A stretch of DNA of 64,000 bases from Oscillospiraceae bacterium (lineage in GTDB: Bacteria > Bacillota > Clostridia > Oscillospirales > CAG-382), in NCBI GenBank assembly GCA_015064625.1, contig SVRW01000002.1, positions 47,987 through 111,986 on the forward strand, given 5' to 3'. Position 1 is the stretch's first letter. Each line of letters opens with the position of its first letter. Positions 2,997-37,694 of this stretch are shown one piece after another. A program made the position numbers and the translations under genes. Below the pieces are notes generated by a model that saw only the letters and a list, made by a program, of their open reading frames with translations, was not told the origin of the DNA and made no database searches.

Positions 2997-3066
2997 GATT
3001 ATTGAGTTATTATGTATAGCGTAATAAGTAAATTTACGTTTAGGGTCAGGAAAGGCATGAACAGTT

Positions 3067-9956: not shown

Positions 9957-12515
9957 TTATTCAGCATCTGCAATTTTTTTCAGCTCGTAAACTAATCCAA
10001 TTGCTTCAATAGGGGTCAAAGTATTTATATCCGTAGCTTTCAGCTTTGATACTATTTCGTCGTTGGATAAACTGTCAAATGAATAATTCGCTTCTTCTGT
10101 TTTTGGTACAGGAATTGCAACACGAGTGCCTTCTGCGGCTTTCAGATGCTTTTTGGCTGAATTTATTACTTCCTTCGGAAGTCCTGCAAGGCTTCCTACT
10201 TCAATACCGTAACTGCTTGCTGTAGGACCTTTTACGATTTTACGCAAAAACTGTATGGAATCATCCTTCTTTTTTGCGGCAACGTTGAGATTTATAACAC
10301 CATCCACAAGAGCTTCCATGTCCGTAAGCTCGTGATAATGGGTTGCAAACAAGGTTTTTGCCTTGATGTTCTTGACCGTGTACTCTGCAACGGCACGTGC
10401 AATGCTCATACCGTCATAGGTGGAAGTTCCTCTGCCGATTTCATCATATATGATAAAGCTTCTTTCCGTTGCATTTTTGAGAATATATGATACTTCGTTC
10501 ATTTCAACCATAAAGGTGGAATTACCTGAAGCAAGGTCGTCGGATGCGCCAACTCTTGCAAAAATCTTATCAGCAACACCTATTCTCGCTTTTGTTGCAG
10601 GAACGAAGGATCCTATTTGAGCTAAAATTATAATCAATGCATTCTGACGCATATACGTGGATTTACCTGCCATATTAGGCCCTGTAATAATGGCAAGACG
10701 GGATGCGGAAGTCAGATTGCAGTCATTCGGTACGAAATACGTATCTTTTCTTGCCGCTTCAACAACAGGGTGTCTGCCGTTTTCTATATGAAGTACTCCT
10801 GAATAATCCACTTCAGGCTCAACGTAGTTGTTTTCTACAGCGCATTTTGCGAAGGAGCAAATAACGTCAAGAATTGCAAGATTGTCGCAGGTTTTCTGAA
10901 TGCGTCCGCTCTGGTCGAGAATAACGGTTCTGATTTTGGAGAAAATTTCGTATTCCAAAGCCGCATCTCTGTCCTTTGCGGAAAGAACTCTGCCTTCCAT
11001 ATCCTTAAGCTGTTCCGTTATGAATCTTTCTCCGTTTGTGAGCGTCTGACGGCGGATGTAATCATCGGGAACCATATTGAGGAATGAGTTTGAAACCTCT
11101 ATGTAATATCCGAATACCTTGTTATAACCCACTTTGAGCGTACGGATACCCGTACGTTCTTTTTCCTTTGCTTCGATTTTTGAAATCCAGCCTTTTCCGT
11201 CTCTTATAATCTCTCTCAATTCGTCAACGTCTGCATTTGAACCGTCTTTTATAATTTCTCCTTCTCGGAGAGAGAAGGGAGGCTTTTCGGCAATGTTCTG
11301 GTCTATCAACGTGCAGATGTCACCGAGGGTGTCAAGGTTTTCATATATTTCGGAAATCAAAGGCGATTTGAAATTTTCAATACCGCTTTTGATATCGGGA
11401 AGTGAACGGAGCGCACTCTCCAAAGCTCTTAAGTCTCTTGCGTTTGCACTTCCAAAAACGAGACGGGTCATAAGACGTTCTATATCGACTATATTTTTCA
11501 ATTCCGAAGAAAGCTCTCGTCTTGTTATATCAGAAGCAACAAGCTCACGAACGCCTTCAAGCCTTTTCTGGATAACGGAACAGTTCATAGATGGCTTGTC
11601 CAAAAACTTTTTCAGAAGTCTTGCGCCCATAGCGGTTGAGGTTTTGTCTATCGCCCAAAGGAGAGAACCTTTTTTGTCACCCGTTCTCATAGATTCGGAT
11701 ATTTCAAGGCTTCTTCTGGTATTGGCATCCATCTGAAGAAAAGCTTCCTTATCGTAGAAATTCAGCTTGTTCATGTATGACATATCCTGCTTCTGCGTTC
11801 TGATAAGATATGACATCAAGCCTGCAACAGCCTTTACTGCGACAGAGGATTGTTCTGATATTTCAGGGAAACGACGGTATAAAGCCGCCATGGTTTTATC
11901 GTTGTCAAAATCGTTTTTTGATTCAGTTATGAGAGATTTGAATTTCGAAGTGAAATATTCACGTGTACTTTCCGAAAGCTTTTCGGAAACTATAAGCTCC
12001 GCAGGGGAGAATGCTGCGCCTTCTGCCGTGATAAAATCATCGGTGTTGCTACCTGTGTAATCAGTTGCAGAAAGCTCTCCTGTTGATATATCTGCAAAAG
12101 CTATTCCAACCTTTCCGCTTTCAAAATAAATAGAACAAAGATAGTTGTTTTTCGTGTCTTTAAGGAATCCGCCTTCCGTTACAGTACCTGGAGTTATAAC
12201 CCTGACCACGTCACGCTTGACAATTCCTTTCGTAGCCTTTGGGTCTTCAAGCTGTTCGCATATGGCAACCTTGTAGCCCTTCGATATAAGACGGGTTATG
12301 TAGCCTTCTGCACTGTGGAAAGGCACACCGCACATTGGCGCCCTCTCGTTGGCACCGCAGTTTCTCCCTGTAAGCGCAAGCTCCAGCTCTCTTGAAGCCG
12401 TTTCCGCATCCTCGAAAAACATCTCGTAAAAATCTCCGAGACGAAACATAAGAATACAGTCGGTGTAATTCGCTTTTATTTCTTTGTATTGATCAATCAT
12501 GGGAGAACCTGCCAT
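9957..12515 (-). CDS. mutS: DNA mismatch repair protein MutS
   Basis: TPMIDQY-type N-terminus, FYEMFFEDA, Walker A GPNMAGKST, and full-length similarity to the MutS family. Confidence 0.95.
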   Translation of the reverse strand: MAGSPMIDQYKEIKANYTDCILMFRLGDFYEMFFEDAETASRELELALTGRNCGANERAPMCGVPFHSAEGYITRLISKGYKVAICEQLEDPKATKGIVKRDVVRVITPGTVTEGGFLKDTKNNYLCSIYFESGKVGIAFADISTGELSATDYTGSNTDDFITAEGAAFSPAELIVSEKLSESTREYFTSKFKSLITESKNDFDNDKTMAALYRRFPEISEQSSVAVKAVAGLMSYLIRTQKQDMSYMNKLNFYDKEAFLQMDANTRRSLEISESMRTGDKKGSLLWAIDKTSTAMGARLLKKFLDKPSMNCSVIQKRLEGVRELVASDITRRELSSELKNIVDIERLMTRLVFGSANARDLRALESALRSLPDIKSGIENFKSPLISEIYENLDTLGDICTLIDQNIAEKPPFSLREGEIIKDGSNADVDELREIIRDGKGWISKIEAKEKERTGIRTLKVGYNKVFGYYIEVSNSFLNMVPDDYIRRQTLTNGERFITEQLKDMEGRVLSAKDRDAALEYEIFSKIRTVILDQSGRIQKTCDNLAILDVICSFAKCAVENNYVEPEVDYSGVLHIENGRHPVVEAARKDTYFVPNDCNLTSASRLAIITGPNMAGKSTYMRQNALIIILAQIGSFVPATKARIGVADKIFARVGASDDLASGNSTFMVEMNEVSYILKNATERSFIIYDEIGRGTSTYDGMSIARAVAEYTVKNIKAKTLFATHYHELTDMEALVDGVINLNVAAKKKDDSIQFLRKIVKGPTASSYGIEVGSLAGLPKEVINSAKKHLKAAEGTRVAIPVPKTEEANYSFDSLSNDEIVSKLKATDINTLTPIEAIGLVYELKKIADAE

Positions 12516-12579
12516 AATACCCTCCGAAAAAACATAAAATTACATTTTAATTATAACCCCTGAAGCTTTTTTTGTCAAT

Positions 12580-12627
12580 AAAAAATATAAAAAGGTCTGT
12601 AAAAAAACAAAGATTTTTTTACAGACC
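12580..12627 (-). terminator. Rho-independent terminator downstream of nagB
   Basis: Perfect 14-bp stem: GGTCTGTAAAAAAA (12594-12607) pairs with TTTTTTTACAGACC (12614-12627). A U-run follows on the minus strand. Confidence 0.7.
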
Positions 12628-12656
12628 CGATTGATTACAGATGCAAAATGTTTATA

Positions 12657-13379
12657 TTATTTTATAAGCTCTGCGGCTTCTTCGTCGATATAAAATTCGA
12701 CGTCAGGATGAAGCTGGAGGACAGATGCAGGAACGTCAGGAGTTACGTCACCGTAAATAGTTTTCTTTACGATTTCAGCTTTTGCTTTGCCGAGAGCAAT
12801 AATGATGATGCTTTTTGCATTCATAACGGTTTTAATGCCCATGGTTACTGCATGTGTGGGAACGTCGTCAATGGAGGCAAAGAAACGTTTGTTTGCTTCT
12901 CTTGTGGATTCTGTAAGCTCAACCATATGTGTGCTTGAGCCGAAAGGAGTTCCAGGCTCGTTGAATCCGATGTGACCGTTGTTTCCGATGCCGAGAAGTT
13001 GAATATCTATTCCGCCTGCGGCTTCAATTGCCTTGTCGTATGCGGCTGCTGTTTCAGCAGACGTATCAAGACCAGAGGGAACGTTTGTTTTAGATACGTC
13101 TATATCAACCTTTGAGAAAAGGTTTGTGTTCATGAAATAACGGTAAGACTGGTCGTGAGAGCCGTCAAGACCTACGTATTCGTCGAGGTTGAAGGTTGTA
13201 ACGTCTTTGAAGGAAATTTTGCCTTCTTTGTTGAGCTTTACCAGCTCGCCGTAAAGGTCTAAAGGAGTTGAACCTGTAGCGTAGCCCAAAATTGCATCAG
13301 GCTTTTTTGAAAGAAGCTCAACGTATCTGAGGGCTGCTTTCTTTGCAATGTTTTCTCTTGAATCGATGATTATTTTCAT
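12657..13379 (-). CDS. nagB: Glucosamine-6-phosphate deaminase
   Basis: LGIGNNGHIGFNEPG motif. 240 aa. GGAGG RBS. Confidence 0.9.
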   Translation of the reverse strand: MKIIIDSRENIAKKAALRYVELLSKKPDAILGYATGSTPLDLYGELVKLNKEGKISFKDVTTFNLDEYVGLDGSHDQSYRYFMNTNLFSKVDIDVSKTNVPSGLDTSAETAAAYDKAIEAAGGIDIQLLGIGNNGHIGFNEPGTPFGSSTHMVELTESTREANKRFFASIDDVPTHAVTMGIKTVMNAKSIIIIALGKAKAEIVKKTIYGDVTPDVPASVLQLHPDVEFYIDEEAAELIK

Positions 13380-26520: not shown

Positions 26521-26545
26521 AAGCCCGCCAGAACGGCGGGCTTTT
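26521..26545. terminator. Bidirectional terminator between convergent genes
   Basis: AAGCCCGCC (26521-26529) pairs with GGCGGGCTT (26535-26543), followed by a T-run. Confidence 0.7.
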
Positions 26546-26616: not shown

Positions 26617-27147
26617 TCAGTCAAACGCCTTTGTTCTGTCCATGTCGAAACTGGGGTTGAAGGCGTAGAAATTTTTGTAATCCAAGTTATCCTGAACTAT
26701 ACGGAGTGCATCGCCAAAGCGTTGGAAATGTACCAATTCGCGTTCTCTGAGGAAACGGATAGGGTCTATTACGTCGGGGTCCTGAGCAAAACGAAGAATA
26801 TTGTCGTAAGTTTTTCTTGCTTTTTGCTCTGCCGCCAAGTCCTCGTGGAGATCTGCAAAGGTATCACCTGTGCTTTGAATATATGATGCTGTCCAAGGAA
26901 TACCGCCTGCGGAAGCAGGGTAGATTCCTGCGGTGTGATCAACGAAATAGGCTTCCAAGCCTGCTTCTTTGATTTGTTCCATCGTCATGTTGCGTGTAAG
27001 CTGATGGATTATAGCGGCTACAATTTCCATGTGCGCCAATTCTTCCGTACCAATGTCCGTGAGTAAGCCAACAACTTCCTTGTATGGCATGGTGTATCTT
27101 TGGTTGAGATAACGCATGGAAGCACCAAGCTCACCGTCAGGACCACC
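26617..27147 (-). pseudogene. cotJC: cotJC 3' segment (Mn-catalase family spore-coat protein), separated from its 5' segment by the element
   Basis: Translates ...GGPDG-ELGASMRYLNQRYTMPYKEVVGLLTDIGTEELAHMEIVAAI..., which matches CotJC/Mn catalase from about residue 30 onward. No start or RBS of its own at the family N-terminus. Confidence 0.9.
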
Positions 27148-27167
27148 AGACGGCTTTTTATTATAAT
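27134..27167. repeat. Left attachment junction (attL-like): 14-bp core plus 19-bp element arm
   Basis: Core CCGTCAGGACCACC (27134-27147) is identical to 35754-35767. The arm GACGGCTTTTTATTATAAT (27149-27167) is the exact reverse complement of 35740-35758. Confidence 0.85.
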
Positions 27168-27169
27168 GT

Positions 27170-28633
27170 TCAAGTTGAAAAATAAACAGCCACAGATTTA
27201 GTGGATTTCAGGTATACTACTTTACTTACTACTGTTCTGACGGCTTCGTTCTTTGATTTCGCTGTAACGTCTGCACGTTTAATATATTGCAGTATGCTAC
27301 GGACTTTTTCTGTATAAGCATTTAGATCTAAGATTTGCCCGTTGGCTTCGCTCTGCATCAGAGCGTTGAGCTCGTTTATTCGTGCGGTGATATCCTCTTT
27401 GTTCTTTGCGTATTGTTCGATGGAATCGATTTCTGAAAGATATGCGGCCTTCGCTCGTTCCAACTTGCGTTTCTCGATTGCTATAAGCTTTTCGTAATCG
27501 GGGGTATCCTTCACGTTGGAGTCGGGCTTCTGCGGTTCTACGTTGAATATTTGGTGTTTTACAGAATCCTCCAGGGCTTGAAGGAATGCTTCTTCAAGTT
27601 TTGGAATCGTAACCGAGTGGGAGACGTGGCAGGATCCGCGAGAGTAATTACAGCACTGCATACTTCTTGCCCCGTTCTTAGTCGTTGCGCTACTCATTGC
27701 CAAAGTTGCCCCGCATGCGCTACAACGTACTATTCCTTTAAGCATATACTCCACAGGCTGATCTCTTTTAGCGTATGGGGGATATGCTTTTTTTTGCGCC
27801 TCGATTCGCTTCTGCACAGTTTCCCACAGTTCCTCTGATATGAGCGGTTCGTGGTGCCCCGACACTGTCATTATATTTTGGTTTGTATAATCTCTTTTGG
27901 AAACTGCACGTGCGCCTTCCAAGCTCCAACGGATCTTCCCGATGTAGCAAGGGTTATTAAGGATATATTTTATCCATCGGTTTTCAGGCGTTTTTCCGCT
28001 TTTGGTTCTTATCCCGCGTTCTCCCAAGCTTATGGCGATTTCACGTTCTGCTTCTCCTGCGGCGTATCTTCGGAAGATCTCACGAACTATATCTGCGGGC
28101 CCGCTTTCATCAGGGTAGTATTTCTTTTCTTTCATCACGTAGCCGTAAGGCGGGGCACAGGTGGGCTCTCCGCGTGAAGCCTTTTCTGTCATTCCTCTGG
28201 TTACCTCTGCGCCCAGGTTGATTAAATAGAATTCATCCATCCATTCTATTATACGCTCTATCAGAGTTCCGAAGTGGCCTTCGGGTATTGGCTCTGACAC
28301 GGAGACAACGGCAACGTTCTTTTTGCGAAGCAGGTTCTTATAGACCATGCTCTCTTCCTGATTTCTTGCAAAACGTGAGAACTTCCAAACGTATATTACC
28401 TCAAAAGGATGCTCCTTCTCCTTCGCCATGGCGATCATGCGGTTGAATTCCGTTCTGCGCTTTGCACTCTTGGCTGAAATACCGTCATCGTAGAATACGT
28501 ATTCATCGGGAATGAGGTATCCTTCCTTGGCGGCGTATTCTCTTGTTTTCTTCAGCTGACTATCTGGGCTGTATTCGTCCTGGCGTTCATCTGATACGCG
28601 GATATACGCAGCTGCTATTTTAAGTGGTATCAT
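27170..28633 (-). CDS. Large serine recombinase (resolvase/invertase N-domain, recombinase domain, zinc ribbon, coiled coil)
   Basis: AAYIRVSDERQ catalytic-Ser motif; CSACGATL...CCNYSRGSC zinc ribbon. 487 aa. The stop is 22 nt from the att core. GGAG RBS. Confidence 0.9.
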   Translation of the reverse strand: MIPLKIAAAYIRVSDERQDEYSPDSQLKKTREYAAKEGYLIPDEYVFYDDGISAKSAKRRTEFNRMIAMAKEKEHPFEVIYVWKFSRFARNQEESMVYKNLLRKKNVAVVSVSEPIPEGHFGTLIERIIEWMDEFYLINLGAEVTRGMTEKASRGEPTCAPPYGYVMKEKKYYPDESGPADIVREIFRRYAAGEAEREIAISLGERGIRTKSGKTPENRWIKYILNNPCYIGKIRWSLEGARAVSKRDYTNQNIMTVSGHHEPLISEELWETVQKRIEAQKKAYPPYAKRDQPVEYMLKGIVRCSACGATLAMSSATTKNGARSMQCCNYSRGSCHVSHSVTIPKLEEAFLQALEDSVKHQIFNVEPQKPDSNVKDTPDYEKLIAIEKRKLERAKAAYLSEIDSIEQYAKNKEDITARINELNALMQSEANGQILDLNAYTEKVRSILQYIKRADVTAKSKNEAVRTVVSKVVYLKSTKSVAVYFST

Positions 28634-28662
28634 TCGGATCTCCTTTCTCGGAAATTTGAGGT

Positions 28663-28679
28663 GTTCGGAAATTCCGAAC
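28663..28679. promoter_or_regulatory. Perfect 17-bp palindrome in the recombinase 5' leader (operator candidate)
   Basis: GTTCGGAA-A-TTCCGAAC lies 30 nt upstream of the recombinase ATG. A related half-site, TCGGAAATTT, is at 28649-28658. Confidence 0.5.
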
Positions 28680-28705
28680 AGTTGGATATTTTATATAAAA
28701 AAGTG

Positions 28706-28734
28706 TTGACGATTATAAAATGACATGATATAAT
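28706..28734 (+). promoter_or_regulatory. Near-consensus sigma-A promoter for the DUF4160/DUF2442 pair
   Basis: TTGACG (28706-28711), 17-bp spacer, TATAAT (28729-28734). Confidence 0.65.
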
Positions 28735-28764
28735 GTATTCAGAAAGACGAGAGGAGATTTACTC

Positions 28765-29016
28765 ATGCCTGAAATTACAAGATTTTATGGAATTATTATC
28801 AAGATATTCTTCACGCGGGAGCATAACCCGCCTCATTTTCATGCTGTATACGGAGAATACAATGGCACGTTTGAAATATCAACGTTGGAAATGATTGAAG
28901 GCGATTTGCCGAATAAAGCACAAGCTCTTGTTAAAGAGTGGGCTGCACAGTATATTGATGATATTATGAAAATGTGGGATACTAAAACATTGAAGAAATT
29001 GCCACCGCTTGAATAA
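28765..29016 (+). CDS. DUF4160 family protein
   Basis: MPEITRFYGIIIKIFFTREHNPPHFHAVYGEY is the typical DUF4160 N-terminus. GAGGAG RBS. Confidence 0.75.
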   Translation: MPEITRFYGIIIKIFFTREHNPPHFHAVYGEYNGTFEISTLEMIEGDLPNKAQALVKEWAAQYIDDIMKMWDTKTLKKLPPLE

Positions 29017-29043
29017 GGCTATTTTAAAAAATAAGGGGGTGTT

Positions 29044-29304
29044 TTGGTGAGTTTGTCAATCAGAGTAAAAGACGTTAAACCGTTGGAAGATATGTGCTTA
29101 TTGGTACACTTTGAAAATGAAATCGTAAAAAAGTACGATATTAAACAATTATTGGCACAGTTCCCCATATACGAAAGATTAAAAAATGAAGAATTATTCA
29201 AGCTGGTCAAGGTAGACTGCGGTGGTTGTGCGGTTGCCTGGAACGAGGATATAGACATTTCGGAAGTTGAACTATGGGAAGGCGGCACCGAGGTGTTCGT
29301 ATAG
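29044..29304 (+). CDS. DUF2442 family protein
   Basis: VKDVKPLEDMCLLVHFENE ... AVAWNEDIDISEVELW pattern. It is the usual partner of DUF4160. The start is TTG 29044 or GTG 29047. Confidence 0.7.
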   Translation: MVSLSIRVKDVKPLEDMCLLVHFENEIVKKYDIKQLLAQFPIYERLKNEELFKLVKVDCGGCAVAWNEDIDISEVELWEGGTEVFV

Positions 29305-29371
29305 AATTTAATAACGTTCAAAATCAAGGGCTTATCCTATTAGGGTAGGCTCTTTTTTTATTGGTATAAAA

Positions 29372-29406
29372 TCGGCAGATTTAACGGTTTGTTTGAAATC
29401 TGCCGA
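29372..29406. terminator. Strong hairpin (11-bp perfect stem), bidirectional terminator candidate
   Basis: TCGGCAGATTT (29372-29382) pairs with AAATCTGCCGA (29396-29406). T-rich on both flanks. Confidence 0.55.
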
Positions 29407-29473
29407 ATATTTATTCTTATTTGGCTGATGGGACGATTTGTTGACGTCAGCAAAACGTTATTACCTTTTTCAG

Positions 29474-29497
29474 CATTTTGCCAACGTTGGCAAAATG
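29474..29497. repeat. Perfect 24-bp palindrome
   Basis: CATTTTGCCAAC|GTTGGCAAAATG. Confidence 0.8.
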
Positions 29498-29524
29498 GTA
29501 GCGGACTATCAACGCTTTCGGCAG

Positions 29525-29564
29525 CTTGTGCATTTTTTGCACAAGTTGAATTTTTTTGTTTTTT
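29525..29564 (+). terminator. Hairpin plus T-tract; its sequence resembles the immunity-region operator
   Basis: CTTGTGCA (29525-29532) pairs with TGCACAAG (29538-29545), followed by TTGAATTTTTTTGTTTTTT. Contains TGCATTTTTTGCA. Confidence 0.55.
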
Positions 29565-29589
29565 CAGTTTGTGCAGAATTTGCACGAAC

Positions 29590-30933
29590 TTACGCAAAAT
29601 GTTTAAATGCGCGTCTGAAGCCAGCTTCTTCTGCTTCTTTTACAGTCATAGCAAAAAACTCTCCAGGTGCATCGATTTTTGTAGCATCATATTGCTGATC
29701 AAAGGGAAGATGATATATTTTTGTTTTTTCTCCTGCTTCGCCTTTACCTATATTACATTTAATGCAAGGATATTCCCCTTTGGCGTAATTTGTTTTATGT
29801 TTTATTTTTAGAAAGTCTGCCATTTTTAATGCTGTTTCAGAAAGTTTTGTGTTTGTAACAAGAACGCCTGTAACGTTTTTAACATCAATGTTTTTCTCTA
29901 TACAGTAACTAATCATAGTTCCATAGAGTTGGGCTATATGTTTTTCGTGTATTGTTTTTTCTTGACTCCAATATTTACATTGAACAATAAGTGTTTTATT
30001 ATCTTTTCTTGCAATTAGATCTCTTCCTAAATCCTCTAATCCCATATAAGATCCGAAATAATCTACGGAATATCCTTGCTGTGAATATTGATATCCCACA
30101 TATAGTTCATAATCTCTCCCTATTTGCCATTTCGTTTTGTTGTGAGATTCTTTGTATCTGTCAAGGGCGAGTTGATTTCGTTCAATGCTACTAAGATTTT
30201 TATATTCTTCCTTGCTGAGCCAATCTCTTGTTCGGTCATATTCAGATATTTTGGTTGCGTCAATTATCGGAAGATCTTTGTAGTCTGTTTCGATAACGTC
30301 GTTGAGCGAAGGAAAAAGATTTAAAAGATATTCCAACTGATACTTTGCTTCAAGATTTTTTTCTACCATTGCTTTCGCGTCTTGCCTGATCTCGCGTATA
30401 GACTTGACTTTTTCAAGCCTTTTGATTGCTCTACCCCAGTCTAAATTGCACGCAAGAATTTCCAGGGAATGAGTTTCGTAATCTGAAATTATAGATGCCA
30501 TATATGGAATTGCAGTTAAATTTGATTTAGTAGATTCGAAAAAGCGAATTTGTTCTCTAAGCATGTTGATTTCTTTTTCAAGAGATTCTTTCTCATGCTT
30601 AAATTGTATAGAATATTTTTGTGAAAGAACTTCTATTTCCTTCTTTAACGCTTTTTTTTCTTCGTTATGATAGTAATTGGAAAAAACATGGGAGGCATCC
30701 AGAAATCCTTTTAGTTCTCTAAGTTTGCTTTCAAGGTTTTTTATTTTTACTTTGGAGTGGTCGAGTTGTGCTTTAAGGGAATTATTGTTCTCGTTAAGGC
30801 GAGAAAGCTGATTTTGGAGATTTTTGTTCGTTCTATTCAATTGTGCAATCTCTTTTTCTGTGCCTCTATTAACAAGGGTTTTAAGAAACATGAATATACA
30901 TATAATTGATAAAGCAATGAGTGCTTCTTTCAT
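29590..30933 (-). CDS. Membrane-anchored coiled-coil protein with a C-terminal Mrr-cat-type restriction endonuclease domain
   Basis: N-terminal TM helix (ALIALSIICIFMFL), then about 200 aa of heptad-rich sequence. The nuclease core is GRDYELYVGYQY...GLEDLGRDLIARKDNKTLIVQCKYW (D...D/E-x-K). The C-terminal tail is IYHLPFDQQY...AEEAGFRRA. Confidence 0.65.
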   Translation of the reverse strand: MKEALIALSIICIFMFLKTLVNRGTEKEIAQLNRTNKNLQNQLSRLNENNNSLKAQLDHSKVKIKNLESKLRELKGFLDASHVFSNYYHNEEKKALKKEIEVLSQKYSIQFKHEKESLEKEINMLREQIRFFESTKSNLTAIPYMASIISDYETHSLEILACNLDWGRAIKRLEKVKSIREIRQDAKAMVEKNLEAKYQLEYLLNLFPSLNDVIETDYKDLPIIDATKISEYDRTRDWLSKEEYKNLSSIERNQLALDRYKESHNKTKWQIGRDYELYVGYQYSQQGYSVDYFGSYMGLEDLGRDLIARKDNKTLIVQCKYWSQEKTIHEKHIAQLYGTMISYCIEKNIDVKNVTGVLVTNTKLSETALKMADFLKIKHKTNYAKGEYPCIKCNIGKGEAGEKTKIYHLPFDQQYDATKIDAPGEFFAMTVKEAEEAGFRRAFKHFA

Positions 30934-30945
30934 TAGGTGAGTCCC

Positions 30946-31572
30946 CTACTCTATATCGTATTTTCCGGATAAGACTTTGCCGAGAATACGAACTCGGTCA
31001 AGCTCAGCTCCTTGGAATCGTGTTGGCTTATATAAAGGATTTTCGGGTACGAGGGTGAGGATTTTGTTTTCTCTGTCAAAATAGATTCGTTTTACGGTTG
31101 CTGAATCGTCTATAAGAACTACGGCGATTTCGCCATTTTCTACAGTGGGTTGGGAACGGATAAACAAAATATCTCCTTCAAAGATTCGTGCATTTATCAT
31201 GCTATCTCCTTGTGCGGTGAGACAAAAATCAGCGTGGATATTATCATCCTCGTCAACATATACTTCGTGGAGTTCTTCAGCGAAGATCGGCTCTCCACAC
31301 GCTACGTTCCCAAGGAGGGGGAATCGTTTCACTGATAGAGGACGAAAATTGTCAGGAATTGTTGGGTCGGGTTCTTCCCAGCCCATAAGATATGCGGGAG
31401 TTGTTTTTAAGGCGTTGGCGATGGGAATTAAAACATCAACAGGGAGCTTTTCAATGTCCCCCTTTTCATATCTGAAAATAGTAGATCTATCTTTTCCGAT
31501 GAGTGCGCCCAATTCCTCTGCAGTAATATTTAGTTCTTTTCTTCGTCTCTTAATGCGTTCTCCGACTGTCAT
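30946..31572 (-). CDS. Phage CI/LexA-like repressor (XRE HTH plus S24 peptidase)
   Basis: HTH is GERIKRRRKELNITAEELGALIGKDRSTIFRYEKG. Autocleavage elements are VACGEP, GDSM (Ser) and VKR (Lys). ATG 31572 is preferred over the ORF opening at 31626. Confidence 0.85.
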   Translation of the reverse strand: MTVGERIKRRRKELNITAEELGALIGKDRSTIFRYEKGDIEKLPVDVLIPIANALKTTPAYLMGWEEPDPTIPDNFRPLSVKRFPLLGNVACGEPIFAEELHEVYVDEDDNIHADFCLTAQGDSMINARIFEGDILFIRSQPTVENGEIAVVLIDDSATVKRIYFDRENKILTLVPENPLYKPTRFQGAELDRVRILGKVLSGKYDIE

Positions 31573-31621
31573 TTTTCTACCTCCCCATAAATAGTATTTT
31601 TGATAATTATATAAATAGTGG

Positions 31622-31705
31622 TGCAAAAATGCAATACTAAAATATTAACAAATTGTAAATGTTGCAAAAATGCAAAAAAGCAGCTTGACAAATCGCATTT
31701 TTGCG
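31622..31705. promoter_or_regulatory. Operator array of the CI/Cro switch
   Basis: TGCAAAAATGCA occurs at 31622-31633 and 31663-31674. The inverted variant CGCATTTTTGCG is at 31694-31705, inside the rightward promoter spacer. Confidence 0.6.
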
Positions 31706-31712
31706 GTATAAT
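31685..31712 (+). promoter_or_regulatory. Rightward (Cro-side) sigma-A promoter
   Basis: TTGACA (31685-31690), 16-bp spacer, TATAAT (31707-31712). Confidence 0.65.
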
Positions 31713-31750
31713 GAAATAAAAATCGCATAAACGCAACAAAGGAGAGAGAA

Positions 31751-31954
31751 ATGGAAAAGGAATCATTGACTGAGCTCATCAATAAGAGCGAGAGAACTCG
31801 TGAGGCGTTGGCAGAAATGCTATCAATAGACCGAGCAACATTGTATCGTAAGATGAAAGACCCACAAAAATTCACTGTAGGAGAGGCTCGAAAACTTAAA
31901 GAGCAATTAAATCTTACACAAGCTCAGGCTTCGTATGTTTTTTTTGGGGATTGA
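31751..31954 (+). CDS. Small Cro-like HTH protein
   Basis: 67 aa, divergent from the repressor. HTH is RTREALAEMLSIDRATLYRKMKD. AAGGAG RBS. Confidence 0.65.
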   Translation: MEKESLTELINKSERTREALAEMLSIDRATLYRKMKDPQKFTVGEARKLKEQLNLTQAQASYVFFGD

Positions 31955-32024
31955 GTCGCATTTGTGCAAATTTAAAAAATAAAAAAATCTCCTGCAGGAG
32001 CAGGAGGAGATAAGGGAGGATGTT

Positions 32025-32498
32025 ATGGTTAACCCTAAAAAGCCAGAGGGTGTAGAGTTTTCAATAGAAGACTGTATTGCTGTGCTTGAAAACATAAAAG
32101 GACGTGCAAAGCATTATGACGAGATGTATCCGCACTTTCCCAAGGAATATTGCGAGGAACTTGCAGGGATGGATTGTTTAGTAATAGATACGGTTATTTC
32201 AGTACTTCGAAAAACCAAAAAAGAGCTGGCGATTGCCAACTCCATAGAGGTATTAACGCATTTGAGTTCTATTTTGAGGAAGGACGGATCCGTTGACGAA
32301 TGCTTCGGCGGTTGGCTTTCGTATTATCCTTCGATTAAGAATCCGTCATTTGCGGTAAGGTATGAATACGCGTCTGAGCTTAAGTTTGTTATGGAGTATT
32401 TAGCGGACGAAAGAGAAGAAGCGGAAAAGGTTTTGAACGTTGCCGACTCCATAGATATATTAGCTGATTTAAGTACCGCTCAGAAAGGAAAGAAATGA
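32025..32498 (+). CDS. Hypothetical phage protein
   Basis: GGGAGG RBS. 157 aa. No motif recognised. Confidence 0.5.
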   Translation: MVNPKKPEGVEFSIEDCIAVLENIKGRAKHYDEMYPHFPKEYCEELAGMDCLVIDTVISVLRKTKKELAIANSIEVLTHLSSILRKDGSVDECFGGWLSYYPSIKNPSFAVRYEYASELKFVMEYLADEREEAEKVLNVADSIDILADLSTAQKGKK

Positions 32499-32806
32499 AT
32501 ACATATAAACTCAATCTTCAGCATTTTGCTGAACCCAACACCAACGTAACCACCGACTCCGGTTTGTCAGTGGAGATGAAAACTCTGTATGACGATGCGC
32601 TCATTGATGAAGCGAGCCCTATGCTCGTACATGATCAATTTGGTCAGAAAAGACCTATTCCCAAAGGAAAAGGCAAAAAAATAGAATTCAGAAAATATGC
32701 TTCTCTTCCCAAAGCAACCACGCCTTTAACCGAAGGTGTTACCCCTAACGGAAGCAAATTGTCCGTTACAGCTATTGAAGCTGAGGTAACCCTAAATATT
32801 TTGTAG
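32495..32806 (+). pseudogene. Truncated phage major capsid protein (N4-gp56-like), N-terminal ~100 aa only
   Basis: LNLQHFAE... LIDEASPMLVHDQFGQKRPIPKGKGKKIEFRKYASLPKATTPLTEGVTPNG is the conserved capsid N-terminus. The ORF stops where homologues continue for more than 200 aa. Confidence 0.65.
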
Positions 32807-32808
32807 AT

Positions 32809-34095
32809 TTGAGAAGATTTTTCAATCTATCGAAAAAAATACCTTTGAGAGCGTACAGGGCGCTTAATGCGGATTGGGAAGAAGCGAAGAAATACGCTCC
32901 CATTGCATTGGTTAAAGAATACGGAGGATTTGACGTTGGTTCGAGCAACGGAAGCAAGAATCTTTTTAGACCCAAAAAACGTTCCGAAAAGTTTTCGGAT
33001 ATAATTGGCGGTTTCCCCGGTTTTATGGATAAGGTGGGCTGGACATCGATTTGGCGAGCGGTCAGACGGGAAGTAGCAGAAGATCACAAGGTAAATGCCA
33101 AGGATATAAACGAGGCGTTCATGGAAAAATACGGTCAAGAATGTGCAGATCGTTTCACGGAAATTATACATAAGTCTCAGGTATATGACTCTGTGTTCTC
33201 GCGCAGTGAGTTAATGCGGTCAAAGTCACAAGCTGCGCAGATATTAACGATGTTCAAGGGCGAATCCACCAAGATATTGACGATGACGTGGACGACCTAT
33301 ATAGAAGCTCTCAGACTTAAAAAAAGCGAAGGTATTATAGCTGCTTCGAAAAAAATCGTATCGTTTGTTGCTGCGTTTACTTTGTCACAGGCGCTTAACT
33401 CTGCTCTCAAGTCTTTGGTTAATGCGGGTATGGATGACGACGAGGACGAAACGTGGACAGAGAAATATATTCAAGCTTTTGCGGATGATTTCGATTCAAA
33501 CACGGGAATAGATGGATTTTTACAGCTGTTCCCCGGAATAAGCGAATTGGTTTCAAAATGGAACGGATACAGGCTTAAAAGAATTGAATTCGCATTGTTT
33601 GAAAATCTTATAGATTCCATCCAAGGTTTTGACAACGAGCGTAAATCCGAAACAGAGAAATGGATGGATCTCGCCTTCTCTGTGTCGGCTTTGTTAGGTT
33701 TCCCTGCGGAGAACGTATACAAAGATACCCAAGGTATAGCCAACTCGGTTCAGACGATAATAAAAGACGTTGCCAACAAAGACGAAACAACGTTTGCGGA
33801 AGCGAAGGATGCCTTTATGGAAGGCTGGACAGGCGAAGATCAATCAAAAAAAGAACCTAAGGAAAGCTATTCTGAAAGGGCTTATGCAATTATTGCGGAA
33901 TTTGAGGAAGGCAACAACGAAGAGGCGAAGAAAAGAATAAAGTCTTTAGTTGATGATAAGAGAAAAGCACGAAAAGGACCAAAAGGGAATCCAAGAAGAA
34001 CAAACGTTGATCATCTATGGGCTACTTGCCTGCCTCAAGGGGTTGAAAGAGCAGGGCTGCAACGGACCTGTCACGGAAGCTATAGGAAAAATTGA
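32809..34095 (+). pseudogene. Phage structural/head-associated protein fragment with no credible start
   Basis: The frame opens only with a TTG 2 nt after the truncated capsid ORF and has no RBS. The charged C-terminus looks frame-disturbed. Confidence 0.4.
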
Positions 34096-34141
34096 AAAAC
34101 ATCTTAATCAGAAAGCACACAAAAGCTAAGGAGGTGGTCAT

Positions 34142-34537
34142 ATGTCATACGATATTGAACTGAAAAATCAAACGGGAGAATCGATTATATACAATGAAAT
34201 TGGAGAGATATCGATTCCGCTCGCTGACAAATCAGGAGAGGGAACTTTTGCTGCACGACATACGGTAACTTATGATTTACATGAACAGTTTCAAAAGCAA
34301 GGTGGAGACACATGCGCATTCGGGGTTGACTTTGTGGCTGTTATTTATACAGAAGGGACTGTTCTCATTCCTGGTGATGCAGGAATTGAAGTCTACATAG
34401 GAGGTGCAATGATTACTTTGTTTGAGGATTCAACAGCGACTGATAGTGCGACAATAAAAAGAAGCACTAATCAGCTGATTATTAAGCTGCCCGGTAATAT
34501 TATAACGGGAGATGTTTTAATAAGCGTGGAGGTGTGA
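34142..34537 (+). CDS. Hypothetical phage protein
   Basis: AAGGAGG RBS. 131 aa. Coupled to the amidase gene. Confidence 0.5.
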   Translation: MSYDIELKNQTGESIIYNEIGEISIPLADKSGEGTFAARHTVTYDLHEQFQKQGGDTCAFGVDFVAVIYTEGTVLIPGDAGIEVYIGGAMITLFEDSTATDSATIKRSTNQLIIKLPGNIITGDVLISVEV

Positions 34538-34538
34538 T

Positions 34539-35405
34539 ATGATAATAACCATTGATGCAGGTCATACGAAAAATACGAACGCAGGGATTATAAAAGGGTA
34601 TTACGAGGGCAACGCCATGTTTATCCTTGCCAACTACTTGCGTGAGGAATTGTTGAGATACAAGGACGTTGGGGTTGTCCTCACGAGAGACGAAGACGAT
34701 AACCCCACGCTTTCCGACCGTGGAAGCCTCGCTATAAACAGCAAAAGTAAAATCTTCATTTCCCTTCATTCCAACGCAGTAAGTAATGCTGAATCTGCCG
34801 CCTACGTTTGCGGATTTTACAGCGTTAAAAGGGAAGTTTCAAAGGAACTTTGTCAAAAACTTGTTTCTGCGGTAACTGACGTCATGAAAGAAGAAACGGA
34901 CGCCTGGAACAGAGGCGCACTTACGAAGAAAAATTCCGCAGGGTCAGATTATTACGGAGTTATCAGAAGCTCTGTTGCGGGTAAAAGCGAAGTGGAATAT
35001 TCCTTTATTATAGAACACGGTTTTCATACAAACAAAAAAGAATGTGAATTCTTGATGGATGATAAAAACCTTCGGAAAATAGCAGAAGCAGAAGTGAAGG
35101 TTTTGGCAGAGTATTTCGATTTGAAACTACGAAATGCTAAGATATATAACGTTGAAATCGGTCCTTTTAAAGGAGAAACCAGGGCTGAGGAAGTGGTTGA
35201 AAAGGTTAAGCAAGCGGGTTTTTCAAATGCTCGCATAATCGAAGCAGCCACGCTAAAGACTGTGGAAGATTTCGCCAAAGAAATCATTGACGGAAAATGG
35301 GGACTGGGACATGCTATGAGAGAAGCGAAATTGAAAGAAGCAGGATGGCTTGAGCTCTATACATATGAAGAAATAAGAATCAAAGTAAATGAGATTTACA
35401 AATAG
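34539..35405 (+). CDS. N-acetylmuramoyl-L-alanine amidase (Amidase_3) endolysin with a C-terminal binding region
   Basis: IDAGHTKN, SLHSNA and IIEHGFHTN zinc-ligand motifs. A SPOR-like segment YNVEIGPFKGETRAEEVVEKVKQAGF. Confidence 0.8.
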   Translation: MIITIDAGHTKNTNAGIIKGYYEGNAMFILANYLREELLRYKDVGVVLTRDEDDNPTLSDRGSLAINSKSKIFISLHSNAVSNAESAAYVCGFYSVKREVSKELCQKLVSAVTDVMKEETDAWNRGALTKKNSAGSDYYGVIRSSVAGKSEVEYSFIIEHGFHTNKKECEFLMDDKNLRKIAEAEVKVLAEYFDLKLRNAKIYNVEIGPFKGETRAEEVVEKVKQAGFSNARIIEAATLKTVEDFAKEIIDGKWGLGHAMREAKLKEAGWLELYTYEEIRIKVNEIYK

Positions 35406-35417
35406 GAGGAAAAGGAT

Positions 35418-35675
35418 ATGGAAATGTTAAACGGTTATATTGTGCCTGTGACCCTTGTAGTATGCTTGTGCGTTGGGTACATAGTCAAACACTATATCCC
35501 AACGGATAAAATCAACAAGTTTATCCCGTTAATTGTTGGATTGCTTGGTGTGATCATTACAGCATGGAATTCAGATTGGGTAATCAATCCTGATATTCTT
35601 GCAATTGGCTTGGTGAGTGGGCTCGCGTCAACGGGACTGCACGAGTTGTTCAGACAATTTATAGACAAGAACTAA
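35418..35675 (+). CDS. Phage holin
   Basis: 85 aa with two TM helices, directly after the endolysin. AGGAGG RBS. Confidence 0.65.
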   Translation: MEMLNGYIVPVTLVVCLCVGYIVKHYIPTDKINKFIPLIVGLLGVIITAWNSDWVINPDILAIGLVSGLASTGLHELFRQFIDKN

Positions 35676-35683
35676 GGAAAATA

Positions 35684-35711
35684 TTGCTTTTGGTGAAAAA
35701 TATGGTATAAT
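35684..35711 (+). promoter_or_regulatory. Outward-facing promoter-like element at the right end of the element
   Basis: TTGCTT (35684-35689), 16-bp spacer, TGgTATAAT (35703-35711). It points across attR, antisense to cotJC/cotJB. Confidence 0.45.
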
Positions 35712-35739
35712 GAATGTCAAATAGCATTGTGTGAAATGA

Positions 35740-35767
35740 ATTATAATAAAAAGCCGTCAGGACCACC
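35740..35767. repeat. Right attachment junction (attR-like): 19-bp element arm plus 14-bp core
   Basis: ATTATAATAAAAAGCCGTC (35740-35758) is the reverse complement of 27149-27167. The core CCGTCAGGACCACC is at 35754-35767. Confidence 0.85.
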
Positions 35768-35854
35768 GAGCTGACTCATGATGAGTTTCGCCATTGCTGG
35801 GTCGGGATTTTTAATGTTTACAGGGTATTGAAGTTTTTTATCGTATGTCCACAT
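35741..35854 (-). pseudogene. cotJC: cotJC 5' segment (codons 1-34), running into element DNA and stopping after 3 foreign codons
   Basis: MWTYDKKLQYPVNIKNPDPAMAKLIMSQLGGPDG|FLL*. This matches the B. subtilis CotJC N-terminus (MWVYEKKLQYPV...). The ATG is 1 nt after the cotJB stop. Confidence 0.9.
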
Positions 35855-35855
35855 A

Positions 35856-36098
35856 TTAGTATACCTCCCAAGGCCAAGGCTGATTTATCCAACTCCACGA
35901 ATCCCCTTTTACTTCACCTGCGGTGAGAGGGCCGTATTTTGATGTGAATTCATCGTAAGCGGCTTTTACCTGGCTTTGCATATTTTTGTAATATTCCATA
36001 GCCTGCGTGCAATTTGGATGTCCGTCTAAATATAAAACTGTTTCGTGTAGTGCAAACTGTAATGCTTGAAGCTTTCTTAAATCCTTTGCTCTGTTCAT
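35856..36098 (-). CDS. cotJB: Spore coat protein CotJB
   Basis: LRKLQALQFALHETVLYLDGHPNC..A..YY is the CotJB signature. 80 aa. Overlaps cotJA by 4 nt. Confidence 0.85.
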   Translation of the reverse strand: MNRAKDLRKLQALQFALHETVLYLDGHPNCTQAMEYYKNMQSQVKAAYDEFTSKYGPLTAGEVKGDSWSWINQPWPWEVY

Positions 36099-36322
36099 CT
36101 TCTGTGCCCCTTTCCATATCCTAAAAAAGGTTTATCCAAGTCTGCAAAAAGCGTTCCCGCACCAAAAGCATCATCTACGTCATAGATGTTCTGCCAACGC
36201 TGAAAAGGAACGTACGCCATTGCAAGAGATATGTTTTCAGGGAAAAGGGATGCGCTGTCGTTTTGAACTTCCCTTGGGTTTCTGCAAAAATTGCAGAAAA
36301 CTTCTTCTTCGTGTTTGAGCAT
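36095..36322 (-). CDS. cotJA: Spore coat-associated protein CotJA
   Basis: AMAYVPFQRWQNIYDVDDAFGAGTLFADLDKPF is the CotJA core. The start codon is uncertain because there is no clear RBS. Confidence 0.75.
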   Translation of the reverse strand: MLKHEEEVFCNFCRNPREVQNDSASLFPENISLAMAYVPFQRWQNIYDVDDAFGAGTLFADLDKPFLGYGKGHRR

Positions 36323-36495
36323 CGCATTTTCGCAAAAACAGTATTCCGTTTTTGCTTTTTCTCCTTGTTTATTTGAAAACCGTCAAATTTCTTCGTCGGC
36401 TTCAATATCATTATATGTAAGATGTAGGAGATTGTGCGTTGATATTGAGATGAAAAACAGCCCACGTTGTGAGCTGTTTTAAGGTGTTATGATTA

Positions 36496-37086
36496 TTACT
36501 CTTTACCGGAAAGTTTTGCATAAAAATGGGAAGTAAACGCGGATGCGATACAGAAAAAGGCGGAAAGTGTGATTCCCCATATGAAGTGCTTAATGCTTTG
36601 TATGGATGAAAGTTCGTAATGTAACCAACCCCAAACGTATGCGATGAGTGTAATTGAAAAAGTGATAAATGATGAAAAGGCGGAAAAAGCTTTTTTTGAG
36701 GAATAAAGCCTTACAAAATACCAATTTACAAGAGAAAGCATAAATCCTGTGGCGGGAATAACGAGATTAAGCGCCCATAGTCCGTTTACAAGCCCTGTAG
36801 GTGTGGCGGCTTCTTCACGAACTCCGAAGGCGATGAGAACAAAGGATAAAAACATTACTACAGACTGCAGAATAGATGCTTTCCACAAATTTATTTTGGT
36901 TGTTTTTTTCTTGGATTCAATTTTTTGAGGATTGTTATACTTTTCGCTCCATTTGCACATCCTTTCATAATCCATATTGCAATCTTTACATGATTTTAAA
37001 TGTTTTTCAACTTCCACAGTCGTTTCTTCAGAACAGCATTTGTCAATATACAAGGGGATAAGGTCTTTAATAACATTACAATCCAT
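36496..37086 (-). CDS. Anti-sigma factor (zf-HC2) membrane protein
   Basis: The N-terminus MDCNVIKDLIPLYIDKCCSEETTVEVEKHLKSCKDCN has the H-x3-C-x2-C motif. It has 4-5 TM helices and lies downstream of the ECF sigma gene. Confidence 0.75.
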   Translation of the reverse strand: MDCNVIKDLIPLYIDKCCSEETTVEVEKHLKSCKDCNMDYERMCKWSEKYNNPQKIESKKKTTKINLWKASILQSVVMFLSFVLIAFGVREEAATPTGLVNGLWALNLVIPATGFMLSLVNWYFVRLYSSKKAFSAFSSFITFSITLIAYVWGWLHYELSSIQSIKHFIWGITLSAFFCIASAFTSHFYAKLSGKE

Positions 37087-37110
37087 TTAATAATACCTCT
37101 TTTCTTTAAT

Positions 37111-37602
37111 TTATAAATCTAATATTTCAGAGAGCTTCTGTCTCCCACGGTAAAACGTAACTCTTGCCCAGCTTTCACTTTTTCCAAAGGTTTCGCTTAT
37201 TTCTTTCATAGTCATATTTCCCATAACGTGAAGAATGAAAACTTCTTTGTAAGGTTCTTCAAGATGACTTAAAGCGTCGTAAAGATCATTTGAAAGCTCT
37301 TTTTGCAAAAACTCGTTTTCAGGATCGGTGAGAGACTTGAGATTTTGGCTTCCTTCGAGATTTTCAAGGGAATATAGGTTTTTATTTTGGTTGTACCAAG
37401 AAAAATAACAGTTTTTTGCAATCTGGCACAACCAAACGGATGCAGCGTTTTCACTTCTCAAATTTGATATATTCATATATGCACGAAAAAAGGTTTCCTG
37501 CGTGAGCTCTTCCGCAAGGCTTTCGTCTTTGCATATTTTCATAAGAAATTTGAATATAAAAACCTGCTTTTCCTTATATAGCTTTTCAAAGTCTGCCATT
37601 TC
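37111..37602 (-). CDS. ECF-type RNA polymerase sigma-70 family factor
   Basis: Region 2 is LAEELTQETFFRAY. Region 4 HTH is MTMKEISETFGKSESWARVTFYRGRQKL. ATG 37602 is preferred; the ORF opens at 37623. Confidence 0.8.
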   Translation of the reverse strand, partial: EMADFEKLYKEKQVFIFKFLMKICKDESLAEELTQETFFRAYMNISNLRSENAASVWLCQIAKNCYFSWYNQNKNLYSLENLEGSQNLKSLTDPENEFLQKELSNDLYDALSHLEEPYKEVFILHVMGNMTMKEISETFGKSESWARVTFYRGRQKLSEILDL

Positions 37603-37694
37603 CTCACCGCCCTTTCTGTCCATTAGATAATAAAAAAGCTGAAACGTTACAAAATAAATTTAAAAGCGGAGAAAAATCTCCGCTTGTATGAGAA

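Follow-up and report, generated by a model that had tools for sequence, protein, structure and literature searches.

Can a spore-coat gene that lies in two pieces, 8.6 kb apart on the chromosome, still be put back together, and if so, in which cells would this happen? The question is raised by cotJC, which encodes the manganese catalase (Mn-catalase) of the spore coat, in a 64,000-nucleotide stretch of DNA from an Oscillospiraceae bacterium (assembly GCA_015064625.1, contig SVRW01000002.1, positions 47,987 to 111,986 of the forward strand); this whole stretch is referred to below as the window, and its numbering is used throughout. Between the two pieces lies an element that encodes its own large serine recombinase (LSR). 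Elements that are excised from sporulation genes during development are textbook examples of how bacteria rearrange their DNA in a programmed way, and to our knowledge only a handful of them have been tested, nearly all in Bacillus, C. difficile or C. botulinum. The best explanation for the locus as a whole, which we hold with guarded confidence, is that the element is the decayed prophage of a phage that targeted cotJC, with excision of the kind known for skin and SPbeta as its most likely behavior.

The layout that the initial annotation had proposed for the cotJ genes held in every coordinate when the window was re-read. The operon runs on the minus strand in the order cotJA, cotJB and cotJC, the last of these starting with an ATG at 35854. 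This ATG opens a frame that encodes MWTYDKKLQYPVNIKNPDPAMAKLIMSQLGGPDG and then runs into FLL and a stop codon (ending at 35741), so that the cotJC start preceding the interruption amounts to 34 codons, the core repeat included. The rest of the gene resumes after a distance of 8,620 bp. The 14-mer CCGTCAGGACCACC has two exact copies in the window, and these are the two cores, attL and attR, at which the cotJC pieces meet the insert. Joining the halves at the core reproduced the in-frame product of 205 residues that had been predicted; it matches Pfam Mn_catalase at 2.7e-56, its best relatives of solved structure are the Mn-catalases 6j42 and 1jku, and it contains the motifs GGPDGE and EELAH. 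The DNA that encodes the first of these motifs includes what we take to be the codon for the first manganese ligand. No stop codon or frameshift interrupts either piece of cotJC, and their ratio of nonsynonymous to synonymous substitution (dN/dS) relative to intact orthologues is about 0.02. By simple arithmetic on its length, some 7 pairs of 14-bp repeats are expected by chance in 64 kb; it is the placement of this repeat, rather than its existence, that exceeds chance. A degenerate 46-nt pattern built on the att sites matched at two places only in the window, with none expected from shuffled sequences.

From the sequences around the cores, an attB and an attP can be predicted. On the gene strand, the predicted attB reads ...CATCATGAGTCAGCTC-GGTGGTCCTGACGG-TGAGCTTGGTGCTTCC... 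and the predicted attP ...TAATAAAAAGCCGTCT-GGTGGTCCTGACGG-CTTTTTATTATAATTC... In the reconstructed attP, 19 of 22 arm positions show symmetry around a GG at core positions 4-5, and this center of symmetry places the predicted crossover at 27143-27144 in one core and 35763-35764 in the other. An independent repeat finder recovered the same arms as a terminal inverted repeat of 22 nt (27146-27167 and 35740-35761) with 95% complementarity. In its shape, the site looks just as a serine-integrase attP would be expected to look, and the 14-bp identity between attB and attP exceeds that found in many LSR systems.

The recombinase gene was confirmed to end 22 nt from the left core, and it seems well preserved. 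The protein is full length, with Pfam matches to Resolvase (2.4e-26), Recombinase (2.6e-21) and Zn_ribbon_recom (4.6e-08), and it carries the catalytic motif YIRVSDERQ, which is invariant in an alignment of the family. At 206 family-invariant columns the LSR departs from the consensus three times, each time conservatively, while 12 relatives range from 1 to 8 departures; the enzyme is apparently intact, with no sign of decay in its sequence. The element retains attL, attR and an undecayed integrase, i.e. all that a precise reversal requires in cis and, in trans, the enzyme for it. Sequence and comparative evidence together establish that the element's own LSR carried out the integration at cotJC and that this step can be reversed exactly in frame; that excision still takes place we consider somewhat more likely than not.

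Evidence on the origin of the element came from the relatives of its integrase. The clade comprises 7,471 database proteins at E <= 1e-30, of which the best 120 are 65-81% identical to the window LSR, and many of the homologues are located on contigs of 40-45 kb; among deposited phage genomes the nearest integrase has 37% identity and comes from a metagenome-derived record. Wherever flanking host DNA can be seen beside such homologues, it is cotJC. In two loci with close integrases (L164, 81% identity, and L083, 69%), the integrase abuts cotJC at the same codons as in the window. Eleven IMG/VR loci (integrase identity 37-65%) show CotJC from about residue 28-30 directly after the integrase stop, and two more show CotJC residues 1-33 after the integrase on the opposite strand. 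A further 28 IMG/VR prophage contigs were found by way of cotJB; in 12 of these, cotJB precedes a truncated CotJC of 31-37 residues, which is met by a convergent LSR with 33-66% identity. IMG/VR contigs with cotJB, a cotJC stump and an LSR are also known from isolate genomes (UViG_2585427807_000004, 2534682211_000001, 2571042307_000004 and 2883526296_000003). The break site shared across this family, whose LSRs are 33-81% identical to that of the window, is the run of cotJC codons for Gly-Gly-Pro-Asp-Gly-Glu. Free-phage contigs of the clade have the order integrase, attP, lysis genes, and their attP sites are palindromic and centered on GGnGGnCC or its complement, i.e. on the Gly-Gly-Pro codons. 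Homologous LSRs at the same cotJC codons, together with matching attP cores, thus mark the window element as one member of a cotJC-targeting family.

Profile scans of the 8,620-bp insert found no genes for terminase, portal, tail or replication, which makes the insert a defective prophage. Two or more deletions within it have left stumps of genes behind. Given the family to which its integrase and att sites belong, we regard it as nearly certain that the insert is a decayed prophage of the cotJC-targeting LSR phages. The only sizeable homologue of one early-region protein, orf157, lies in the early region (L209) of the prophage in GCA_045593705.1, which is also the prophage with the closest integrase (L164), and this fits the idea that the window element is a deletion derivative of a phage of that kind.

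Two further properties of cotJC as a target emerged from these comparisons. Within one integrase clade, insertions occur in both orientations (IMG/VR and ENA loci L086, L090, L098 and L165 versus L087 and L097); in one pair, the attR of L097 and the attP of L098 have the same arms, with the core of about 8 bp for Gly-Gly-Pro inverted and the orientation of integration flipped. Furthermore, a second attachment site was seen in IMG/VR contigs in which cotJC breaks after TDIGTEE, at about residue 65 in the region of the EExxH metal motif (L181-L184, L186, L187, L196-L200, L204 and L207, the last breaking after TDIG). Where the adjacent integrases are visible, they are 23-27% identical to the window LSR. 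Two break sites with distant integrases imply that cotJC is targeted at no fewer than two sites by different lineages of serine integrases.

Could the interrupted gene be an artifact, an assembly chimera of phage DNA and cotJC from a metagenome? The organism is apparently uncultured and its closest relatives are metagenome-assembled genomes (MAGs), which lends the idea some initial plausibility. However, attR was recovered on 11 independent contigs with 99.8-100% identity to the window and attL on 5 contigs, two of which diverge within the element; these 16 contigs come from at least 10 metagenome samples and from different assemblers, and the same type of junction recurs in many other genomes. 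The organism is present in the JGI samples 3300018493-95, 3300022660, 3300024268-72 and 3300029705 and in the ENA assemblies ERZ27248306, ERZ27248351 and ERZ27248436. Recovery of both junctions on independent contigs argues that the insertion is no assembly artifact, and a chimera, already of negligible probability, is ruled out on these grounds. Three of the independent assemblies (L168, L169 and L170) break a contig at the same base, window position 27224, which is 77 nt past the core and within the 3' end of the integrase gene. This shared break, which is no evidence of excision, may reflect a branch in the assembly graph, if the samples also contained related integrase genes.

The initial annotation had proposed a comparison with uninterrupted cotJC at this locus, and such alleles were found in MAGs of other species. 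Once rejoined, the locus aligns without a break over the junction to the uninterrupted cotJABC of related MAGs (L001 and L158-L163), at 81-84% nucleotide identity. Their CotJC proteins differ from the joined product at 3-14 of 205 residues, the best having 97-98.5% amino acid identity, and the empty attB of L158 carries an identical 14-bp core. The nearest intact alleles combine 3-6 amino acid differences with nucleotide identities of only 82-84%, and the latter value places them in other species. No copy of the exact joined 205-residue CotJC was found in a collection of 15 billion proteins. Directly upstream of cotJA (window 36496-37623, minus strand) lies a pair of genes for an extracytoplasmic function (ECF) sigma factor and a zf-HC2 anti-sigma factor, and this synteny is kept in related species with intact cotJC (L160-L162). 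For the species in the window, the split allele is the only cotJC allele observed (16 contigs, at least 10 samples).

The proposed history of the locus can be modeled as follows. The ancestor would have been a temperate phage of gut Clostridia, of about 40-45 kb, whose LSR recombined a palindromic attP, adjoining its own gene, with an attB in the cotJC coding sequence, namely the conserved DNA that codes for Gly-Gly-Pro-Asp-Gly-Glu. Later internal deletions would have removed the genes for replication, packaging, head and tail. Recombination at the central GG of the 14-bp core would then release an 8.6-kb circle and rebuild the 205-residue CotJC. If this occurred in the mother cell, which differentiates terminally and in which the cotJ operon would be transcribed, the forespore would keep the element. 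Precedents for such a mechanism are available in sigK, spsM, spoVFB, spoVR, gerE and yabG (PMC4191935, PMC5595907, PMC10747680, PMC5025042).

One observation that bears on timing concerns the promoter region of the operon. In scans for sigmaE and sigmaK motifs, the sole match in a meaningful place was a sigmaK-like motif upstream of cotJA; the motif has 16 matches on both strands of the 64 kb, so that about 0.02 would be expected, in the orientation seen, within the 173-nt intergenic region. In its -10 box the motif is identical to that reported for C. difficile sigK P2, and cotJ-like operons are sigmaK-dependent in C. difficile (PMC3789822). Mother-cell expression of the cotJ operon may be inferred from B. 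subtilis and C. difficile and from this motif. By analogy, excision of the element could be specific to the mother cell, a suggestion that we make tentatively and at somewhat less than even odds. The skin- and SPbeta-like architecture recognized in the initial annotation is fully borne out, in that a mother-cell coat gene is split, the element's own LSR lies beside an att site and the frame can be restored.

Several results weigh against excision, or against its developmental control. No recombination directionality factor was recognized among the element proteins, a kind of factor that is generally not recognizable by homology. When every protein of the element was compared by tblastn with about 85 integrase loci, only the CI repressor, the giant-protein fragment and the amidase recurred. 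The candidate directionality factor orf157 and its neighbor orf131 had no match in viral contigs, and a homology search with orf157 gave only three partial matches; such a factor may have gone when the phage genes were deleted. Motif scans found no sigmaE or sigmaK motif upstream of the LSR gene or of any small open reading frame (ORF) of the element. Among 20 host ORFs of the window that were scanned, no other sporulation gene was found, and these ORFs are of the housekeeping kind (e.g. MutS, MutL, MetRS and ABC transporters). B. subtilis cotJ mutants do sporulate, and selection for the restoration of cotJC is perhaps weak. The genes that remain in the element could be intact simply because its decay is recent.

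Rejoined and circular junctions were also sought directly, using the degenerate 46-nt pattern for attB, attP, attL and attR and then plain patterns for the attB side and for attP. The attB and attP junctions of the species had no match in the metagenome_contigs or viral_contigs collections, in which the attR control was likewise absent; because even the integrated junction, known from L081, is missing from those collections, the scans are uninformative either way.

A further difficulty is that two conspecific contigs, with host flanks 99-100% identical to the window, carry different but related elements at this position in cotJC, as a comparison with window 34539-36825 showed. L176 matches the window exactly in its flank and holin gene and at 92% identity in its amidase gene, with a second holin gene in the place of orf131 and divergence thereafter. 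In L177, the flank is about 99% identical and the lysis genes 84-86%; its core has a synonymous GGT-to-GGC change on the host side of the predicted crossover. The overall nucleotide identity of L177 (93%) had suggested an old insertion that co-diverged vertically with its host. This was rejected, because most of the mismatches fall in the phage genes, at 14-16%, against a flank of about 99% identity, as expected for a different, related phage in the same site. Such replacements amount to ordinary prophage turnover and mosaicism, which they fit as well as domestication, and they weaken any argument from apparent fixation of the split allele.

Many of these results would be expected if the insertion were a dead end. 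The directionality factor would have been lost, no excision would occur and cotJC would be permanently disrupted; the loss would be tolerated because CotJC is dispensable or backed by a paralogue, and the integrase and att sites would be intact through lack of time. Consistent with this idea, the element has no recognizable directionality factor and no developmental promoter, its structural genes are deleted or truncated, and no empty site or circle was found (in collections that also lacked the attR control). A paralogue does lie beside the split cotJC of L083 (GCA_017451735.1), where a second Mn-catalase gene at 12070-12732, encoding 220 residues with 35% identity to CotJC, adjoins cotJC in convergent orientation; with such a paralogue, a cell might be able to do without CotJC. 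We consider a dead end a live alternative but the less likely one. The integrase is as conserved as in intact phages, the two cores do not differ, the attP arms show 95% complementarity and both cotJC halves are clean. Furthermore, the split allele is apparently fixed (at least 10 samples), which, for a coat gene on which purifying selection acts strongly in relatives (a dN/dS of about 0.02), is easier to understand if function is recoverable.

The other genes of the element (Table 1) bear on how excision might be controlled. In its center, genes for a CI/LexA-like repressor and a Cro-like protein diverge, and operator-like sites are repeated across the region between 31620 and 31730. The CI protein is 46-50% identical to repressors that adjoin homologous integrases. 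These features raise the possibility that excision follows phage rules, being triggered by CI cleavage upon DNA damage or occurring stochastically, as in active lysogeny, with restoration of cotJC as a by-product. Such control would account for the intact CI/Cro switch (helix-turn-helix and S24 peptidase domains in CI), with its perfect sigma-70 promoter and operator-like repeats, and the relatives of the element are ordinary temperate phages with integrated and free forms. SPbeta, moreover, responds both to stress and to sporulation (PMC4191935, PMC6957869). On the other side, a defective element gains nothing by excision during an SOS response, and it would disappear from dividing cells that excised it, whereas at least 10 samples showed no cured allele. 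In addition, the element's probable toxin-antitoxin pair would penalize vegetative loss. Control of the phage type is, in our view, improbable.

Table 1. Features of the split cotJC locus and of the element within it (window positions)
Feature	Position	Strand	Basis or remark
Terminator-like hairpin, bidirectional, 3' of cotJC	26521..26543		Sequence scan
cotJC 3' segment, codons 35-205 and stop	26617..27133	-	Reads ELGASMRYLNQ...
attR core, 14-bp direct repeat	27134..27147		Predicted crossover dinucleotide 27143-27144
Intervening element body	27148..35753		8,620 bp with one core copy; defective prophage
Large serine recombinase (integrase), 487 aa	27170..28633	-	Pfam; phrog_95 integrase, 9e-101
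17-bp perfect palindrome GTTCGGAATTTCCGAAC	28663..28679		Just upstream of LSR ribosome-binding site
DUF4160 (DhiT-like toxin) and DUF2442 gene pair	28765..29304	+	Pfam; NCBIfam
Coiled-coil and Mrr_cat nuclease-domain protein (cargo)	29590..30933	-	Pfam Mrr_cat, 7.8e-10; NCBIfam sunset domain
CI/LexA-like repressor (HTH_3, Peptidase_S24)	30946..31626	-	Pfam
Cro-like helix-turn-helix protein	31751..31954	+	Divergent from CI; perfect TTGACA-16-TATAAT promoter at 31685-31712
orf157, early-region orphan, candidate directionality factor	32025..32498	+	3 partial homologues
Major head protein gene, truncated (103 aa)	32495..32806	+	phrog_1357, 3.5e-20, profile positions 11-110 of 356
orf428, giant phage protein fragment (pseudogene remnant)	32809..34095	+	phrog_22978, positions 2862-3183 of 3513
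orf131	34142..34537	+	No recognizable relatives
Endolysin, Amidase_3 and CW_7 repeat	34539..35405	+	Pfam
Holin	35418..35675	+	Pfam Phage_holin_5_2, 4.5e-13; phrog_1129
attL core, 14-bp direct repeat	35754..35767		Predicted crossover dinucleotide 35763-35764
cotJC 5' segment, codons 1-29 upstream of core	35768..35854	-	tblastn of CotJC residues 1-36
cotJB	35856..36098	-	Pfam CotJB, 3e-27
cotJA	36095..36322	-	Pfam CotJA, 1.6e-17
SigmaK-like promoter motif AC-16 nt-CATATAAT	36410..36435	-	About 88 nt upstream of cotJA; motif match only

The gene pair next to the integrase is probably a toxin-antitoxin (addiction) module that stabilizes the element. The DUF4160 protein matches the NCBIfam model toxin_DhiT at 8e-27 with 93.7 bits, slightly below the cut-off of 100, and the DUF2442 gene is directly adjacent; a similar pair occurs near the integrase in L134, whose integrase is 37% identical. 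DUF2442 also had a weak PHROG match to an excisionase (2.6e-05), which was set aside: because its partner is a DhiT-like toxin, the pair is read as toxin-antitoxin rather than as a source of a directionality factor. The palindrome upstream of the integrase gene occurs only once in the window and does not resemble the operator-like repeats of CI (TGCAAAAATGCA, 31620-31730); it is possibly the operator for some regulator of the integrase.

The cargo protein with the Mrr_cat domain has 447 residues, with an N-terminal coiled coil and a C-terminal sunset domain. It had no relatives in the other integrase loci and is not part of any PADLOC system, and PADLOC reported no defense system above noise; the gene may nonetheless be a candidate for a defense function. 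In the early region, orf157 contains an internal direct repeat of 35 nt with 80% identity (32233-32267 and 32440-32474), and its homologues cover only 54-57% of the protein, which together suggest an internal duplication. The orf428 fragment is related to part of the 3,107-residue MuF/SNF2 protein of L165. At the right end of the element, an extended -10 promoter-like site on the plus strand (35685-35712, TTGCTT-16-TGGTATAAT) points outward and reads over attL, in the antisense direction relative to all three cotJ genes; around the -10 box it is similar to the cro promoter (79% over 24 nt, repeat D9). Scans for tRNA genes and Rfam families between 26000 and 37000 gave no match.

The element extends what is known mainly in its particulars. 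Elements of this kind, and cotJC as their target, had been known before, and the concept is unchanged; the novelty lies in the host group, in the exact attB and in the integrase clade, and it may be that the cotJC-targeting phage family has not been described in its full breadth. In gut Clostridia, cotJC emerges as a gene in which serine-integrase phages land repeatedly, as seen in ruminant-gut MAGs and gut-derived viral contigs. The serine integrases of these phages form a new clade, whose target is compact, highly conserved and built on a 14-bp core. They also provide a defined set of attB, attP and integrase with which to ask about phage-gated restoration of a coat gene in anaerobic gut spore-formers, and a natural series from active phage to 8.6-kb remnant that bears on what is kept upon domestication. 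A broader and distinctly speculative proposal, which we think unlikely to be right in full, is that gut-Clostridia phages and their remnants make use of the cotJC motifs that code for metal ligands (at least two sites, two integrase lineages and both orientations), with mother-cell excision gating the coat catalase and the remnant domesticated. If this were true, assembly of the spore-coat catalase would be routinely gated by phage-derived elements across uncultured gut spore-formers, and the remnant in this ruminant-gut species would have been fixed and domesticated as a developmental switch.

How does the element compare with those already described? Whether an element in cotJC had been characterized before was left open in the initial annotation, and the answer is mixed. 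Interruptions of the gene have been listed in silico: cotJC appears as a target of phage or transposon insertion in Abe et al. 2013, as cited in bioRxiv 10.1101/2021.11.22.469490, and a skin-like element has been tabulated in cotJC of Laceyella sacchari FBKL4.010 (bioRxiv 10.1101/2022.02.25.481979, Table S3). On the other hand, a literature search, which covered Abe et al. 2013 by way of the citing paper, found no experimental study of any cotJC element. The Laceyella element occupies the same gene and is of similar size, its cotJC pieces of about 77 and 117 codons lying about 8.1 kb apart according to the same table. It differs in that the break is near the second site, after TDIGTEE, rather than at GGPDGE, and in that the host belongs to the Bacilli.

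The element resembles skin of B. subtilis (sigK, with SpoIVCA and Skr) and skinCd of C. difficile (CD1231 and CD1234) in its architecture; its LSR is far from the integrase of any isolated phage (37% identity at best, in a metagenome-derived record). In each case a defective prophage occupies a mother-cell sporulation gene, with the LSR gene at one end beside an att site and short flanking direct repeats that would allow the ORF to be restored. Cargo and lysis genes are also shared, and 8.6 kb falls within the reported size range of skin elements, 2.6-48 kb. The target there is the sigma factor gene sigK, whereas here it is a coat gene, so that excision would not gate the sporulation program; nor was a factor of the Skr or CD1234 type, or a sigmaE-dependent promoter, found here. 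The yin element in yabG of Clostridium botulinum (PMC10747680) is similar in being a clostridial, prophage-like element with a serine recombinase in a mother-cell gene for coat maturation. For yin, excision of a circle has been demonstrated and a putative factor with a sigmaK-like promoter has been proposed (PMC10747680), which sets it apart from the window element.

The comparison with SPbeta in spsM (SprA and SprB) joins the window element to its whole family. The two systems differ in host class (Clostridia here), target gene, integrase clade and attP; there is no sprB-like gene next to the window integrase, and insertions in both orientations occur within its family. In both systems, however, the integrase gene adjoins the att site, and active phages and decayed remnants share a single attB in a gene for the spore envelope. 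The series from active phage to remnant seen in the B. amyloliquefaciens descendants of SPbeta (PMC4191935) has its parallel here in the contigs of about 40-45 kb and the 8.6-kb element that divides cotJC.

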